DNA of 50,831 nt from a virus, in UHGV virus genome UHGV-0144957; one strand, given 5' to 3'. Shown one piece after another: positions 5,841 to 28,068 of this stretch (position 1 is its first letter; each line of letters opens with the position of its first letter). Both the position numbers and the translations under genes were made by a program. Under the pieces are notes generated by a model, which did no database searches, was not told the DNA's origin, and saw only the letters and a program-made list of their open reading frames with translations.

Positions 5841-5926
5841 GGGAAGGAAAGGGATTTGAACCCTTGGAGGAGCTTATCCCTCTACGGTTTTCACCGCTGC
5901 AATCGGCCTCTCTGCCATCCTTCCTT
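5841..5926 (-). tRNA. tRNA-like element, type II (long extra arm), no canonical 7-nt anticodon loop
   Basis: Minus-strand read: GGAAGGATGGCAGAGAGGCCGATTGCAGCGGTGAAAACCGTAGAGGGATAAGCTCCTCCAAGGGTTCAAATCCCTTTCCTTCCC. The acceptor stem is a perfect 7 bp (GGAAGGA/TCCTTCC). The T-arm is perfect (AAGGG-TTCAAAT-CCCTT). A D-arm is present. The arm at the anticodon position folds as GCGGT-GAAA-ACCGT with a 4-nt loop. The 3' CCA is not encoded. Confidence 0.45.
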
Positions 5927-6002
5927 TGGTGGGAATGCCGGGATTTGAACCCGAAACCCGCAGATTATGAGTCTGACGCTCTGCCCATTGAGCTACATTC
6001 CC
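5927..6002 (-). tRNA. tRNA-Met (anticodon CAT), CCA encoded
   Basis: Minus-strand read: GGGAATGTAGCTCAATGGGCAGAGCGTCAGACTCATAATCTGCGGGTTTCGGGTTCAAATCCCGGCATTCCCACCA. Cloverleaf with a 7-bp acceptor stem, D stem GCTC/GAGC, anticodon loop CTCATAA and T loop TTCAAAT. It could equally be a tRNA-Ile(LAU)-type. Confidence 0.75.
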
Positions 6003-14285: not shown

Positions 14286-14325
14286 GCAGGAAACATCCCC
14301 ATGTGTGTGAGGAAGCTCCATTTCC

Positions 14326-16832: not shown

Positions 16833-17208
16833 GGCTGCGTGGGACCCACGCGTGGCCCCTGCGTGGGCCACGCACCATATATCTAACTGTAATGGTTGAT
16901 TATTTTTTTGGGGCGTAGGTCTTTACATTTTCCGCGTTTTGTGCTGTTCTTTTCCTACGGTGCTCATCACACCAACCATAGGCGGACAACGCCACCCGAC
17001 AGCATGGCGCTTTTTTGTGCCCTTTTTCCAAAGTCAAGAGTTTTTCTTGGCTGTCTTTTGGGCTATTATTGCATCCAATGTTTGCCGGGTGTGCCCGATA
17101 TGTCCAAGGCTTCGGCCTAAAGGCGGGCAGCCGCACCTATGGGCGGTGATGAACACCCGGCATCGTCATTCATCGGCGGTGTCAATCCTCTCACCATAGG
17201 AGTGGCAC

Positions 17209-18138
17209 ATGTCACAGCTTTCTTCTTCCGTTTCCCTTCCTCAGATTGCCTACAAGGGCATCCCCGTTGTCACCACAGAAACGCTTGCTCGTGCGTATGA
17301 GGTGAAGCCCATCAACATTCAAAAGAACTTCTCGGCAAACAAGGACAGGTTTGTCGAAGGTAGGCATTACTACACTATTTCTGGTAACGATTTAAGGGAG
17401 CTAAAGCACAGACTAACCGAAAGTAAGTCTGTGAAAATCGCCCGAAATGTAAACGCCCTCACCCTCTGGACTGAGCGCGGAGCAGCCCGCCATGCCAAGA
17501 TGCTAAATAGCGATAAGGCGTGGGACATGTTCGAGTTGCTGGAAGAAACATTTTTTGCAGTGGTCAAGACAGAGCAGCCCGCCCCTTCCCCCATCTCCAA
17601 GCGCACCGACCCGGAGCGCAAGGCACTGACCGCCATCATCAACACGTGGGTGGGCATGGCGCCGATTCACTATGCTTCGGCACGGGCACAGGTGAACGCC
17701 CATTTCGGCGTCACTTCTGTGGACGCCCTGACCGTGGCGCAGGTTAAGGAGGCTATTCAGTGGGTACAGGCAAAGATTGACGCTCTCCCCGCTGTGCCCG
17801 CCCCCGCCCGTACCCCGGCGCTCGCCGCCTTCAACGTCTACCGTGACCGTGTGAAGGAGCTTGAACGCCTTGAAGTCAAGTTCATGGAATTCGCGGGGGA
17901 AACCAGAACCCGCCTTTCCGAACTCAACGCGGAGTACATCCGCCTGAATCAAGGGGCCTATGCCGCCATGCTTGGCCTCATCCCTTCGATACAGCCCGGC
18001 TCCAAGGATAGGCTTATCGACGCGCTGGCGTCTCAATCATATGATGCCTACAACTGGATTGATGAAGGCTTGCAGCGTATGAGGCTGGCAATCATCGCCG
18101 CACGGTCGGCAAACAGGACAATCGCAGAAGCGAACTAG
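17209..18138 (+). CDS. antirepressor-like protein with ORF6N domain
   Basis: N-terminal IAYKGIPVVTTETLARAYEVKPINIQKNFSANKDRFVEGRHYYTISGNDLRELK is a typical ORF6N (KilA-N-related) domain. The gene has its own ~375-bp upstream region, between terminase and portal. Confidence 0.7.
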   Translation: MSQLSSSVSLPQIAYKGIPVVTTETLARAYEVKPINIQKNFSANKDRFVEGRHYYTISGNDLRELKHRLTESKSVKIARNVNALTLWTERGAARHAKMLNSDKAWDMFELLEETFFAVVKTEQPAPSPISKRTDPERKALTAIINTWVGMAPIHYASARAQVNAHFGVTSVDALTVAQVKEAIQWVQAKIDALPAVPAPARTPALAAFNVYRDRVKELERLEVKFMEFAGETRTRLSELNAEYIRLNQGAYAAMLGLIPSIQPGSKDRLIDALASQSYDAYNWIDEGLQRMRLAIIAARSANRTIAEAN

Positions 18139-24672: not shown

Positions 24673-24749
24673 AGCCTCTCCCTTCCCCCATGTGAAAGCC
24701 CCAACCGCCTGTTTAACGGTTGGGGCTTATTTGCCTCTTTGGGAGCTGT

Positions 24750-25016
24750 TCAGTAATGATAGCGGCATTGGAGTACGATCAGGGCTTCGCTCTTTTCGTC
24801 CAGCTTATAGACGAGCCGATCCTCCTGATTGATGCGTCGTGACCAGCATCCGGAAAGATCGAACCGGAGCGGTTCCGGCTTGCCTAGCCCTTCAAAAGGA
24901 TTCCGCATGGCATCGCGCAGCAATTCGTTGATCCGTTTGACCGTGCGCTTGTCCGCATGCTGCCAATAGAGGTAGTCCTCCCACGCCTGCGGCGTCCACG
25001 TAAGCAGCATGCTCAA
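24750..25016 (-). CDS. yoeB: YoeB-family toxin (RelE superfamily mRNA interferase)
   Basis: Near-colinear with E. coli YoeB: WTPQAWEDYLYWQ...DKRTVKRINELL...NPFEGLGKPEPL...SGCWSRRINQEDRLVY...LQCRYHY. Confidence 0.85.
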   Translation of the reverse strand: MSMLLTWTPQAWEDYLYWQHADKRTVKRINELLRDAMRNPFEGLGKPEPLRFDLSGCWSRRINQEDRLVYKLDEKSEALIVLQCRYHY

Positions 25017-25267
25017 TCCTCCAGCTCATGCGGCATGGCCTTGCCCGCATCGGCGGCCTGCATCGCTTCCCTGAGCCGTGCGGCGTTGGCGGGCGAACGG
25101 AGCAGATACGCCGTCTCCATGATGGCGTTATAATCCTCAAGCGACATCATGACCACAGAGGGCGATTTTTGCCGAGTAATGATGACCGGCTCATGGTGAT
25201 CGCAGACGCGGCTCATGGTTTCCGCAAGGTTCTGCCGGGCTTCGGAGTAGGTAATGGCCTGTGACAT
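25013..25267 (-). CDS. yefM: YefM-family antitoxin
   Basis: MSQAITYSEARQNLAETMSRVCDHHEPVIITRQ... Strong RBS AAGGAGG. 4-nt overlap with yoeB. Confidence 0.8.
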   Translation of the reverse strand: MSQAITYSEARQNLAETMSRVCDHHEPVIITRQKSPSVVMMSLEDYNAIMETAYLLRSPANAARLREAMQAADAGKAMPHELED

Positions 25268-25369
25268 GACGCCTCCTTTATTTTGTACAAAAATACGTAC
25301 AAACAAGGCAGGCGTCAAGAATAAAAGGCGGCTCCGAAGAACCGCCTTTTCTACCATATTCTTTTCTCG

Positions 25370-25825
25370 TTAGAATCCAATCCAGCCGAAGCCTTTGGCC
25401 ATGATCGCGGCAAGGGCAAAGGCTATGGCGAACTGCCATTTGAGCAGATCATATTTGACCTTTTCAACTTCGCCACGCACTTTTTCGATCTCAGTCCGTA
25501 AGCGGGCTTCGGTTTCCTTTACCTCGCCACGGACTTTTTCCGTCTCGCCACGGATCTTCTCGATTTCTACCGTCAACCGCGCTTCCGTTTCCTTCATTTC
25601 GGCACGGATTTTTTCAGTTTCCCCGCGAACCTTTTCCAGTTCGACTTGTAAGCGCAACTCGGTTTCGCGCAGGTCTTCTTTGGTCGCGGACTTATCCTCA
25701 CGCTTTTCCAGCACCTCTACAAGAGCGTCGAACTGCTCGGCAGTAAACGCTTTTTCCAGTTTTTTCCCGGTATCGAACAGCAACATGGGGGAATCCCTCC
25801 GTTGGTAAAGTCTTATATGATTCAT
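25370..25825 (-). CDS. DUF1640-like coiled-coil membrane-anchored protein
   Basis: Repeated TEKVRGEV(K/E)ETEARL heptad-like units plus a C-terminal TM helix LLKWQFAIAFALAAIMAKGFGWIGF. The encoding DNA contains matching tandem repeats. Confidence 0.45.
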   Translation of the reverse strand: MNHIRLYQRRDSPMLLFDTGKKLEKAFTAEQFDALVEVLEKREDKSATKEDLRETELRLQVELEKVRGETEKIRAEMKETEARLTVEIEKIRGETEKVRGEVKETEARLRTEIEKVRGEVEKVKYDLLKWQFAIAFALAAIMAKGFGWIGF

Positions 25826-25841
25826 GCAGGGTTGCCAAGGA

Positions 25842-26123
25842 TTACTCTAGCATCATCCTGTTCGAGGTCTTCGCGGCACGGATGGCAAGGTGCATGTCGT
25901 CAAGTGCGGATTCGAGGTTTTGCCGGGCGATGTAGGTCGGGGCGGTCATGAGCTGGACAAGCGCGTCAACGGGCGTATTCCCGGATAACGAGACGTACCG
26001 GAGCAGTTCGGGATACGTCCCCTGCGTCACCCGACGGAAGTCCCGTTCCAGCCCATAAGCCTGCTCGCGGATCAGGGCTGCAAGCTCAATCCATTCCTGC
26101 TCAAGCCGTTCAAGCGCCCTCAC
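25842..26123 (-). CDS. small helical hypothetical protein (93 aa) abutting the CRISPR array
   Basis: ORF track. It ends 18 bp from the trailer-end CRISPR repeat. A weak resemblance to HepT/HI0074-type helical proteins could not be supported by a motif. Confidence 0.4.
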   Translation of the reverse strand: MRALERLEQEWIELAALIREQAYGLERDFRRVTQGTYPELLRYVSLSGNTPVDALVQLMTAPTYIARQNLESALDDMHLAIRAAKTSNRMMLE

Positions 26124-26141
26124 GCGGTCGCGGTAGATAGG

Positions 26142-26388
26142 CTTCTAAGCCGCCTACACGGCGGATAATAGGACTCTTGTGGGCGTGCTTAATTTGTGAG
26201 ACTTCTAAGCCACCTACACGGCGGATAATTGGCTGCGCGAGCACGTCGATCCGTTGTTGGCTTTCTAAGCCGCCTACACGGCGGATAACTTCTGGTTGAG
26301 CTTCTAAGCCGCCTACACGGCGGATAATTTCCCCCTAAGAGTTGAGTTTGATGCCGGAAACTTCTAAGCCGCCTACACGGCGGATAAT
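26142..26388 (-). CRISPR. orphan CRISPR array, 5 repeats x 28 nt (type I-F-like), spacers 32/32/11/32 nt, no cas genes
   Basis: Repeats at 26142-169, 26202-229, 26262-289, 26301-328 and 26361-388 read CTTCTAAGCCGCCTACACGGCGGATAAT, with single-nt variants in the 2nd and 3rd. The reverse complement ATTATCCGCCGTGTAGGCGGCTTAGAAG matches the I-F consensus GTTCACTGCCGTATAGGCAGCTAAGAAA at 20/28 positions. It has the same 5-bp stem, 5-nt loop and CTTAGAAG handle. The AT-rich leader lies on the right (26389 onward), so the array is transcribed from the minus strand. Confidence 0.8.
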
Positions 26389-26597
26389 AAGAAATATTTG
26401 ATAACTCCTTTTTACTTTTTAGTGGGTTGCATCAACAGCCTTATCAAAACCTTCGTTTTCATGGCTACTTTACAACCACCTTATTTCAAAAGATTTTCCC
26501 AGACAACTTTTTATGAAGCTGGAAGAATCCATAAGAGAGTATGGGGAGTACCATTGCTGGCTGTGATAGGCTCTTTCATCAAGTAAAAGGATTGACA

Positions 26598-26685
26598 GAA
26601 ACACCCCACGTGCGTGGGGAAGACTTGGCTCCGGTGGAATTGACGTTGAGTGTCGGGGAAACACCCCCACGTACGTGGGGAAGAC
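26598..26685. CRISPR. putative 2-repeat mini-array (27/28-nt palindromic repeats, one 33-nt spacer)
   Basis: GAAACACCCCACGTGCGTGGGGAAGAC (26598-624) and GAAACACCCCCACGTACGTGGGGAAGAC (26658-685) are separated by 33 nt. The reverse complement GTCTTCCCCACGCACGTGGGGTGTTTC is reminiscent of I-E-type repeats. The mini-array shares the AT-rich region 26389-26597 with the larger array. Confidence 0.4.
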
Positions 26686-26726
26686 CTCTCTTGCTAAAGA
26701 GTGTTGGCAAGAGTTAAATTGAAAAG

Positions 26727-26747
26727 TCATTGGAAAAGCCCCGTTCA
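26727..26747 (-). terminator. terminator hairpin downstream of gene 26769-27380
   Basis: AGCCCCG-TTCAGGG-CGGGGCT stem-loop, with a T-run on the minus strand. Confidence 0.4.
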
Positions 26748-26768
26748 GGGCGGGGCTTTAAAAAGATT

Positions 26769-27380
26769 CTACCGTAACAAGCTGCAGTCGTCGGCTACCA
26801 CATTACCCAGTGCCATACCTTTAACCGTACACATGAGGGAAACTTTCCCACCTTTTCTTAAAGACGCGGCAGAATCCGTTTGCCCGCGTTCCAAATCGGC
26901 AAAAATATTTTCCAAGAAGCCTGTCCCTTCGAGGGTCAATCTTGCCAGCCCGGTAACGGATTTGGATATATCAGTTACTGTTCCAGTAATAATAATCTCT
27001 TTTCCTTTATATTTTTGGTCAGCGGCAATCTCGTTGGACTTGTACTCACGGACGAGCTGGACAGACGTGATCCGAGGCATTTTTGCTATTTTCTCCTGCT
27101 CGGCTGCGGCTCGCTCAGCTTGTTTACGCAGTTTATACTCTTCATTGGCAGCTTCAATACGGGCTTTCTCTTCTGGAGTTTGCGTTACCGCCTTGAATGC
27201 TCCAATAGCGAAGAAGATAAGGAAAATATAGCCTATCCATTTGATAATTTTTTTCCCGAATATCCCTGATGAACTCCCTTTTTTTCTGTCAGCATCAGTT
27301 ACAGGACGCCCGCATTTAGGGCAAGCCGCTGCGGAAGTCGAAACTTTGGATTTGCAATCCGGGCATTTGAAGGTAGCCAT
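26769..27380 (-). CDS. zinc-ribbon + TM + OB-fold (tRNA_anti-like) domain protein
   Basis: N-terminal CPDCKSK...CPKCGRP ribbon. TM helix IIKWIGYIFLIFFAIGAF. A coiled linker. C-terminal OB-fold-like region (GKEIIITGTVTDISKS...). The gene sits on an AT-rich island. Confidence 0.5.
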   Translation of the reverse strand: MATFKCPDCKSKVSTSAAACPKCGRPVTDADRKKGSSSGIFGKKIIKWIGYIFLIFFAIGAFKAVTQTPEEKARIEAANEEYKLRKQAERAAAEQEKIAKMPRITSVQLVREYKSNEIAADQKYKGKEIIITGTVTDISKSVTGLARLTLEGTGFLENIFADLERGQTDSAASLRKGGKVSLMCTVKGMALGNVVADDCSLLR

Positions 27381-27476
27381 ACATCATCCCCCTTATTTAT
27401 AGATGAGGCTATCATGGCATAGGCCGTTTCAAAAATCCACCGCCGCCGCTCCGAAAGGGGCTTTTGTTTTGCCCTG

Positions 27477-27496
27477 TGCGAACCTTGTTCACGGTA
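27477..27496 (+). promoter_or_regulatory. conserved late-promoter motif copy 3
   Basis: TGCGAACCTTGTTCACGGTA follows a terminator-like hairpin (GCTCCGAAAGGGGCTTTTGTTTT), 48 nt upstream of ATG 27544. Confidence 0.5.
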
Positions 27497-27543
27497 CATC
27501 ATTTCTTTTTTTCAGGGCATCATCCTGAAAAAGGAAGGTCCGC

Positions 27544-27741
27544 ATGTACGTTGAAAATACCAATTATTGGGTTGAGGTTGTGTTGCGGCAGTTAAAGGGG
27601 TTTGTCCCCAAGGGCGAGCCTGTCCATTTTCACATTTGTTTTTCCATGGTGGGGGGGGAACCCACGATAGATTTCACGGCTGTTCAGGTTTTTGATGAGG
27701 AAGATCAACTACAACCTCAAACCGAACCCGCGATGTGCTAG
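27544..27741 (+). CDS. hypothetical protein (65 aa)
   Basis: Good RBS AAAAAGGAAGG and late-promoter motif copy 3 upstream. Convergently overlaps the next gene by 68 nt. Confidence 0.35.
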   Translation: MYVENTNYWVEVVLRQLKGFVPKGEPVHFHICFSMVGGEPTIDFTAVQVFDEEDQLQPQTEPAMC

Positions 27742-28039
27742 AATCGGATGTTTCCCGGTGCCCATCCGCCTTCAGACTTGCGGCAATCACGGCCACGCCA
27801 AAGCCGCCTCCAGCCTTGCCAGACTTGCTGGCCGTAATGGCAATATCAAAAGCCACGGTCTGCAATTGGGTTTGGGAATGAAACGCTTCGGGGTTCTTGA
27901 TCCGTTCAGGGCCATTTTCTTTAGCACGGTAGTACGGATTGATGAGCGCCCCAGAGCCCCGCAACCGCGTCTGCGCGCCGTGGATGCCCTCGGCGATCTG
28001 GCACAGCGTTTCTTCTACAAAGCTCTTCAAGTCCATCAT
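27674..28039 (-). CDS. hypothetical protein (121 aa)
   Basis: ORF track. Globular-looking composition. I have a vague recollection of similarity to small domains associated with trypsin-like/defence modules (AFDIAITASKSGKAGGGFGVAV...), but this is unverified. Confidence 0.35.
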   Translation of the reverse strand: MMDLKSFVEETLCQIAEGIHGAQTRLRGSGALINPYYRAKENGPERIKNPEAFHSQTQLQTVAFDIAITASKSGKAGGGFGVAVIAASLKADGHRETSDSSTSRVRFEVVVDLPHQKPEQP

Positions 28040-28068
28040 TATGGCCGAAACACTATGGAGGTTCAGCG

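Follow-up and report, generated by a model that had tools for sequence, protein, structure and literature searches.

A type I-E CRISPR mini-array in tandem with a type I-F array in a temperate gut phage

Viruses can carry small CRISPR arrays without cas genes. That phages and archaeal viruses carry such mini-arrays, and that these take part in interviral conflict, is already established, both for the Sulfolobales viruses SPV1 and SPV2 (PMC6858448) and for the phage and prophage mini-arrays that have been reviewed (PMC11656645). Racr units, which are RNA anti-CRISPRs, are phage-encoded copies of a host repeat, likewise without cas genes, for which a promoter directly upstream is expected, often in the neighborhood of acr genes; the SRUFinder rules count a repeat as solitary when no full or partial repeat lies within 100 bp, and set the others aside as arrays or mini-arrays (PMC10651486). 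Cracr arrays, which are viral crRNA-like regulatory RNAs, include small phage-borne units of I-E type that end in a repeat with a 1-nt deletion (10.1101/2024.10.29.618823). Here we analyze positions 26598-26685 of the virus genome UHGV-0144957, whose whole stretch of 50,831 nucleotides we call the window, where two repeats enclose one spacer, E1, beside a second array of type I-F. Judged by its sequence, the element is a real type I-E mini-array and adds another example, an unusually well-documented one, to the established group. We consider it likely that this cas-less unit yields a CRISPR RNA (crRNA) that guides the host's Cascade and thereby excludes competing phages.

The locus shares with SPV1/SPV2-type mini-arrays its one or two spacers, its lack of cas genes, its host-family repeats and a temperate lifestyle. 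As in those viruses, other viruses and not the carrier are targeted, the carrier's orthologous locus is diverged and spacers turn over between close strains; unlike there, the nearest targets of E1 lie in unrelated phages and not in a close relative. In contrast to those mini-arrays, this bacteriophage carries two subtypes, I-E and I-F, in tandem. Bacteriophage mini-arrays have been described as mostly without host-like leaders, whereas this phage has a long conserved I-F leader and, in one variant, a host-like I-E leader end. The chromosomal I-E arrays of Bilophila wadsworthia ATCC 49260, Mailhella and Desulfovibrio have the same repeat family, hairpin, 61-bp period and degenerate terminal repeat, and the same AA flank on identified protospacers, but the unit studied here has no adjacent cas operon, holds a single spacer, is preceded by a different upstream region and lies inside a phage genome. 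It resembles a Racr in being a phage-encoded copy of a host repeat, and differs in having two repeats around a canonical, foreign-derived spacer, in being extendable and in having a neighboring repeat inside the 100-bp limit for solitary units. It resembles a Cracr in its small size, its I-E type and the 1-nt deletion in its terminal repeat, but its 33-nt spacer is full length, where that of a Cracr has 21-24 nt, and the match of this spacer is to a structural gene of phages and not to a cas promoter.

The type I-E unit and its repeat family

A first-pass annotation, made from the letters alone, had placed two palindromic repeats 33 nt apart and 209 bp to the right of a first array, and these coordinates hold. 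The near-identical copies are GAAACACCCCACGTGCGTGGGGAAGAC (26598-26624, 27 nt) and GAAACACCCCCACGTACGTGGGGAAGAC (26658-26685, 28 nt), separated by the 33 nt of 26625-26657; a repeat search of the window returned the pair at 61-nt spacing, and the gap to the last I-F repeat, which ends at 26388, spans 26389-26597 (209 bp). Read on the minus strand, the unit starts with a canonical 28-nt type I-E repeat, GTCTTCCCCACGTACGTGGGGGTGTTTC (26658..26685), recognized by its sequence, its hairpin and the cas-adjacent arrays that share it. The 33-nt spacer E1, CCCGACACTCAACGTCAATTCCACCGGAGCCAA (26625..26657), follows; its length gives the 61-bp period of host arrays, and its sequence comes from a tail-fibre-like gene of other phages. 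The unit closes with a 27-nt terminal repeat, GTCTTCCCCACGCACGTGGGGTGTTTC (26598..26624), which has lost one G after an intact hairpin. The two copies differ by this deleted G and by one loop base, and both form hairpins of 6-7 bp (-11.7 kcal/mol for the 28-nt copy and -10.8 kcal/mol for the 27-nt copy, z about -2.5). The first repeat has the 3′ end GTGTTTC, the prospective 5′ handle of a crRNA.

With up to two mismatches allowed, the palindromic core CCCCACGNNCGTGGGG has only two sites in the 50.8-kb window, and both are the I-E repeats (shuffled controls gave a mean of 0.21 matches and reached two matches in 3/100 shuffles). The evidence that this two-copy pattern is not due to chance is external, because the same 28-nt unit builds long arrays elsewhere. 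Running the repeat pattern GTCTTCCCCACNNNNGTGGGGGTGTTTC over one genome per species, we found it, among the matches listed, at more than 120 genome loci, in arrays of up to 62 units and always with a 61-bp period. The taxa carrying these arrays, again among the matches listed, are Gamma- and Betaproteobacteria and the Desulfovibrionaceae (Mailhella, Desulfovibrio and Bilophila, including B. wadsworthia).

We read the orientation of the cas genes wherever the upstream flank of an array was present. At locus L059 the array follows co-oriented Cas6e (PF08798), Cas7e (PF09344), Cas5e and Cas1; in Candidatus Desulfovibrio gallistercoris (L041) it follows Cas5 and Cas1 on the same strand; and in Mailhella (L012) it follows Cas1 on the same strand. 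The Pfam domains found 5′ of the arrays at these three loci are PF08798, PF09344, PF09704 and PF01867. The array of B. wadsworthia ATCC 49260 (L125) opens with GTCTTCCCCACGCACGTGGGGGTGTTTC right after a Cas2-like open reading frame (ORF). Compared with this repeat, the first repeat of the window is off by one loop base and the terminal repeat by one deleted G; the loop of the terminal repeat, GCAC, is identical to that of B. wadsworthia. Since I-E cas operons lie upstream of their arrays in the same orientation, the crRNA sense is the minus strand of the window. The annotation had described a second mini-array, of another repeat family than the I-F array and I-E-like in reverse complement. Both points are borne out by a distinct repeat that elsewhere lies 3′ of, and co-oriented with, Cas6e-Cas7e-Cas5e-Cas1.

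In the comparison with known repeat classes that the annotation had proposed, a match was found to the cas-linked I-E repeat arrays of genomes; in Rfam (E-values up to 10), an incomplete library, no CRISPR-DR family was found for the I-E repeat and only the I-F array was matched. We take this miss as a gap in the library, and not as evidence against CRISPR. No Cas domain was detected in the window ORFs scanned (Pfam, PADLOC and NCBIfam) nor in the precomputed Pfam annotation of 16.7-37.4 kb. With no Cas gene among the ORFs scanned, the unit is an orphan array and not a complete CRISPR-Cas locus.

The repeat also occurs in other viral contigs. It forms true arrays in L002 (6 copies at 61-bp spacing), L005 and L009, and the same minimal design as in the window recurs in L042 (a prophage fragment from a Bilophila metagenome-assembled genome, MAG), L048, L028 and L184. 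Full-length solitary copies lie in L001 (2483-2510) and L003 (1167-1194), one directly 5′ of a small ORF that precedes a methyltransferase-like gene (called by eye) and the other beside a tRNA-like region; both are candidates for Racr-type elements. Within the window, a degenerate I-E-like unit, AGCTTCCTCACACACATGGGGATGTTTC, lies at 14290-14317 on the minus strand. It is identical to the repeat at 23/28 positions, keeps the 3′ handle and forms a hairpin of -8 kcal/mol. It is intergenic and overlaps the start of a 56-aa ORF, and a repeat-like GTCATCCCCACGG precedes it 34 nt upstream. In the relatives L141 and L143 the unit is not conserved.

Origin of spacer E1 and polymorphism of the locus

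A BLAST of the 33-nt spacer against phage databases, suggested in the first-pass annotation, found no significant match for E1; against 50,697 phage records, blastn gave nothing significant for the whole locus or for any of the spacers. The origin of E1 was instead found with a wobble-masked pattern, in which every third base is masked. In this form, 21 viral contigs match at 22/22 non-wobble positions, where essentially none would be expected by chance. All 21 encode the peptide PTLNVNSTGAK in the same frame, with every mismatch to E1 at a wobble position. The proteins that contain this peptide are 300-1,200 aa long, and several match PHROG tail-fibre or tail families. The best match to E1 is 31/33, in a tail-fibre-like ORF of L224, a 60%-GC metagenome contig found in a second scan; contig L212 matches at 29/33 with an AA flank.

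The window contains no second copy of E1, and its phage has no homolog of the tail-fibre gene, so we rejected self-targeting. Apart from the E1-like tail-fibre module, the 21 contigs share nothing with the window phage, so E1 is not aimed at a close relative. E1 is thus an ordinary spacer out of the tail-fibre gene of a foreign phage, with its actual donor unsampled.

Locus variants were retrieved by exact look-ups of the Sie-like protein and orf93 that flank the two arrays, which gave 14 further or overlapping samples. The I-E repeat, E1 and the 27-nt repeat are identical in 16/16 loci covering the unit (14 metagenome samples), all of this phage lineage only. Variant L130, with flanks 99.96% identical, has three extra repeat-spacer units 5′ of E1 and keeps E1 and the 27-nt terminal repeat. 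The loops of its repeats run in series from GCAC (terminal) through GTAC to GTGC three times, which fits sequential additions at the leader end together with one point mutation, or recombination. The I-F array varies as well. Its first spacer begins TTTCCGG in the window and TGAACACC in L132 and L137, and is absent in L136 and L130. Variant L133 has lost the entire I-F array and kept the I-E unit. In L221 the two I-F spacers are wholly different, and so is the sequence that precedes the I-E unit. In evolutionary terms the arrays are live: among near-identical phages, spacers come and go at the leader ends.

The newest I-E spacer of L130, TACTGCGCTATGGAGCTTTTCAGGATGGAGACA, matches about 20 related phages, at 33/33 in L165 and at 32/33 in most, and with a 5′ AA in every case. 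Its site is a gene for a 602-aa tail-region protein. The counterpart of this gene in the window and in L130 (33813-35516) has about 38% protein identity and no nucleotide match, and with so diverged a counterpart the carrier should be spared by the spacer. An I-E spacer of L005 matches the phage contig L004 (32/33, 5′ AA). In turn, I-F spacers of L004 match L042 (30/32, mismatches at 12 and 18, CC flank) and about 20 relatives (32/32, CC), with a CT flank in one 31/32 match (L170). The canonical protospacer adjacent motif (PAM) of type I-F is CC; the I-E system CRISPR4 of Streptococcus thermophilus shares the 28/33 geometry and uses AA as its PAM, which serves as a lead and not as a test. Spacers E2 and E3 of L130 and all I-F spacers of the window matched no target. 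Matching at the nucleotide level shows that the sister spacers target other phages, with consistent PAM-like flanks.

The I-F array, the flanking regions and the carrier phage

The I-F-like array (26142..26388, minus strand) has five repeats, GTTATCCGCCGTGTAGGCGGCTTAGAAA, and spacers of 32, 11, 32 and 32 nt. Its best match to the Rfam family CRISPR-DR4, an I-F-type repeat, is on the minus strand and scores 34.7 bits, against a gathering score of 35. On that strand, the AT-rich segment between the arrays (26389..26597, minus strand, 209 bp, 36% GC) stands 3′ of the I-E unit and 5′ of the I-F array. With the I-F leader of L004 it shares about 83% identity, a homology that stops exactly at the I-E repeat boundary (26597); the sequence adjoining the leader in L004 is homologous instead to window positions 16915-17217. 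With both arrays on the minus strand and the L004 homology ending at 26597, the segment is the leader of the I-F array alone. The annotation had seen two arrays back to back that share a divergent, possibly bidirectional leader. The Rfam match for I-F and the cas-operon orientation for I-E place both on the minus strand, and are therefore at odds with that arrangement: the unit and the array stand in tandem, head-to-tail. The same orientation evidence and the module boundary in L004 rule out a bidirectional leader.

Between two full repeats of the I-F array, at 26290-26300 on the minus strand, lies an 11-nt ‘spacer’, CTCAACCAGAA. It is kept in most locus variants, is missing in L130 and L221, and is far too short for an interference guide; it could be a deletion scar or a Racr- or Cracr-like unit that nucleates a truncated Csy complex. 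In L004, at the end of an I-F array (2032-1985, minus strand), an I-F repeat cut off just past its hairpin, GTTATCCGCCGTGTAGGCGG, is fused directly to an I-E repeat also cut off past its hairpin, GTCTTCCCCACGCACGTGGGGG, just upstream of an ORF start, and this fusion looks like a decoy chimera of two subtypes. The same contig has an ORF6N-like gene flanked by two long I-F arrays (8-11 repeats).

An 83-nt region 5′ of the I-E unit (26686..26768, minus strand) may be its leader or promoter. It contains the terminator-like hairpin of the Sie-like gene (26734-26753) and a diverged version of a host I-E leader motif, TTTTCAATTTAACTCTTG. The I-E leaders of Desulfovibrionaceae end in a motif like AAAAGTTCAATAATAT.TCAGG directly before the first repeat; in the window, TTTTCAATTTAACTCTTG is set apart from the repeat by 22 extra hairpin-forming bases, and a 7-bp hairpin (26688-26713) abuts the repeat. 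Variant L221 has a host-like leader end before its I-E unit, with 19/24 identities to that of Mailhella L012 and alignment z-scores of 2.7-4.2 against L125, L012, L066 and L041 (1.25 against L065). At the other end of the unit, the hairpin of the terminal repeat followed by UGUUUCUGUC scored as terminator-like (26619-26604, minus strand), and the 1-nt deletion moves the U-rich tail nearer to the stem. The terminal repeat might also help to end the I-E transcript ahead of the I-F leader.

The window corresponds to the entire ~50.9-kb metagenome contig ERZ505327 NODE_678 (100% identical). Its lifestyle genes (integrase, S24 repressor, Bro-N/KilAC antirepressor, primase-helicase, ERF recombinase and M15 endolysin) and structural genes (terminase, portal, protease, capsid and E217-like tail genes) are those of a temperate myovirus-like phage, judging from gene content. 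Both arrays lie within a lower-GC block between the major capsid gene and a Bro-N gene. Upstream of them and in the same direction is the Sie-like gene (26769..27380, minus strand), which encodes a zinc-ribbon and tRNA_anti-like (OB-fold) protein with a match to a PHROG that bears the annotation superinfection exclusion. Downstream and co-oriented on the minus strand are four morons: orf93, a 93-aa ORF (25842-26123), a coiled-coil protein (25370-25825), the YefM antitoxin (25013-25357) and the YoeB toxin (24750-25016). The order on the minus strand is thus the Sie-like gene, its terminator-like hairpin, the upstream region, the I-E unit, the 209-bp segment, the I-F array, orf93, the coiled-coil gene and YefM/YoeB.

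Positions ~24700-28050, with YoeB/YefM, the coiled-coil protein, orf93, both arrays and the Sie-like protein, form a hypervariable moron slot. Among relatives with a 96-97% identical sheath protein, the slot is empty in L161, L168 and L183 and holds up to ~5 kb in others, and most of these close relatives have no arrays in the equivalent slot. Another I-E mini-array is found in the same slot on the opposite strand in L184 (880-1150) and L165 (1-200), both plus strand. There, a degenerate repeat comes first, then a 33-nt spacer, next a canonical repeat followed by a 47-nt spacer, and last a truncated repeat, with a (CT)n microsatellite before them and a clear intrinsic terminator after them. 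Elsewhere in the window, two adjacent tRNA genes lie at 5841-6002 (minus strand), a tRNA-Met (CAT) and an 84-nt tRNA with an unusual anticodon call.

Two lines of sequence evidence make Bilophila, or a relative of it among the Desulfovibrionaceae, the probable host: the Bilophila MAG fragment L042 shares phage genes with the window, and Desulfovibrio spacers match relatives of the phage. The I-E array of the Ca. Desulfovibrio gallistercoris MAG L041 (3456-3549) has two spacers that match distant relatives, L186 at 27/29 and L191 at 29/32, which links the phage family to Desulfovibrionaceae hosts with this I-E system. Among the 1,672 I-E spacers of the fetched genome arrays, none matches the window, and matches are to more distant relatives only.

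Proposed function and rival explanations

The unit has everything that one crRNA needs: a complete first repeat, a spacer of the canonical 33 nt and a closing repeat that is degenerate only past its hairpin. In the function that we favor, the unit would be transcribed on the minus strand, by read-through or with a promoter of its own, out of the region that lies downstream of the Sie-like gene. Cas6e of the host would then cut at the base of each repeat hairpin and release one full crRNA, in which the 33-nt spacer stands between a 7-nt 5′ handle, supplied by the 28-nt repeat, and a 3′ hairpin, supplied by the 27-nt repeat. Loaded with it, host Cascade, together with Cas3, would destroy incoming phage DNA that has the protospacer in a tail-fibre gene absent from the carrier. 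The lysogen and its prophage would thereby be shielded from a competitor, a form of heterotypic superinfection exclusion. With the I-E unit in tandem with an I-F array that has its own leader, the phage may use two CRISPR subtypes of its host. The neighborhood counts for this function: the unit has Sie-like and toxin-antitoxin genes around it and occupies a moron slot that is hypervariable. That the unit is transcribed, processed by Cas6e, loaded into Cascade and active in interference we infer, and so too the way in which spacers are gained, be it Cas1-Cas2 adaptation or recombination.

Several results weigh against the guide function. Exact searches gave no E1 protospacer in the curated phage collection, in viral contigs (full 33 nt and the 20-nt PAM-proximal part) or in metagenome contigs (full 33 nt with a non-C prefix). 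The 31/33 match in L224 has mismatches at position 7, within the seed, and at position 19, and its 5′ flank is AG and not AA; a currently cleavable target of E1 is not demonstrated by this best match. A scan of 25700-27500 for a sigma-70 consensus promoter returned no site. The upstream region has no significant similarity to host I-E leaders, with the exception of one locus, L066 (z of 3.7, compared with 1.07 for B. wadsworthia). The extra repeats of L130 have GTGC loops, against GTAC in the first repeat of the window, so that plain duplication of the first repeat needs one more mutation, or else the units arrived by recombination. Finally, E1 does not vary across 14 samples, as would also be expected of a relic that is inherited passively.

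The last of these points leads to the inert relic, a fragment of a host or phage I-E array that was captured by recombination, is carried passively next to the I-F leader and has no current function. E1 has the trailer-end position and is unchanged in every copy, no exact target of it and no promoter were found, and in the published view phage mini-arrays are mostly without host-like leaders and gain spacers by recombination (PMC6858448, PMC7099407). For E1 specifically a relic is possible; for the unit as a whole we judge it unlikely. Both repeat hairpins are intact, the decay of the terminal repeat spares exactly the part that a crRNA requires, and the unit has been kept despite deletion of the I-F array (L133) and a changed upstream context (L221), while a sister lineage has added to this very array a spacer with a perfect match in co-occurring relatives. 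Another rival is a Racr-like RNA anti-CRISPR decoy, whose transcribed repeat hairpins would soak up host Cas6e and Cas7e and so weaken I-E immunity against the phage, and whose spacer would be irrelevant cargo. Phage-encoded I-E repeat mimics are proven inhibitors (PMC10651486), solitary copies of this repeat exist in L001 and L003, L004 fuses a truncated I-F hairpin to a truncated I-E hairpin, E1 is invariant with no exact target, and a highly expressed phage crRNA would compete with host crRNAs anyway. We nevertheless regard a decoy as improbable. The Racr search defines solitary units, a partner within 100 bp making an array or mini-array, and here the two repeats are 33 nt apart; the spacer has exactly the canonical length and comes from a phage structural gene. 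A decoy would need neither growth by 61-bp units nor a newest spacer that perfectly matches rival phages next to a consistent PAM-like flank.

Two other explanations are far less probable. A viral Cracr, whose spacer pairs partly with the promoter of a host cas or toxin gene so that Cascade is reprogrammed and the host's immunity silenced, is very hard to reconcile with E1. Phage I-E Cracr arrays do resemble mini-arrays and have a terminal pseudo-repeat with a 1-nt deletion (preprint 10.1101/2024.10.29.618823), but the I-E pseudo-spacers described are 21-24 nt long against 33 nt here, and E1 matches a coding tail-fibre module codon by codon and not a promoter. E1 has no match in any fetched cas locus, although these loci exclude the cas8e promoter regions of likely hosts. 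The remaining alternative, part of which the first-pass annotation had raised as protein-binding operators, treats the palindromes as operators or terminators, signals in DNA or RNA that have nothing to do with CRISPR. The palindrome is perfect in each unit, and the terminal hairpin with its U-rich tail (26619-26604, minus strand) is terminator-like; this likeness is, however, common to every I-E repeat of the family and not specific to the locus. We set operators aside because in unrelated genomes the repeat accompanies hundreds of different spacers of 33 nt, and because hundreds of cas-associated arrays, whose 33-nt spacers vary, are built from the identical 28-nt unit. The annotation had proposed that identical palindromes with an identical intervening sequence in unrelated genomes would indicate a regulatory element, and we found that combination only in this phage lineage. 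Operators or terminators are thus a highly improbable explanation.

It is conceivable, though we are doubtful, that the locus is a dual-subtype guide cassette updated by host Cas1-Cas2 acting on phage-borne leaders, by canonical adaptation and not by recombination with host arrays. The leader-end variation of both arrays in 99.96%-identical phages, the subtype-appropriate flanks of the newest spacers (AA or CC) and the stepwise loop series of L130 (GCAC, GTAC, GTGC) are each consistent with this process. If true, it would contradict the published inference that bacteriophage mini-arrays are without functional leaders and unable to adapt.

What makes the locus noteworthy is the tandem of I-E and I-F in one phage, the conserved I-F leader, the host-like I-E leader end of one variant and the leader-end polymorphism among near-identical genomes. 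These features bear on the inference that bacteriophage mini-arrays cannot adapt canonically (PMC7099407), and make it testable whether the mini-arrays of phages adapt by way of host Cas1-Cas2 or do no more than recombine with arrays of the host. The sister spacers map perfectly, with consistent PAM-like flanks, onto co-circulating relatives and not onto the carrier. The locus is a tractable system for CRISPR-mediated superinfection exclusion among gut phages. It is a clean case from nature, in a lineage of human-gut phages that likely have a pathobiont, Bilophila, as their host, and it supplies repeat, PAM and host clues for the poorly characterized phages of the Desulfovibrionaceae.

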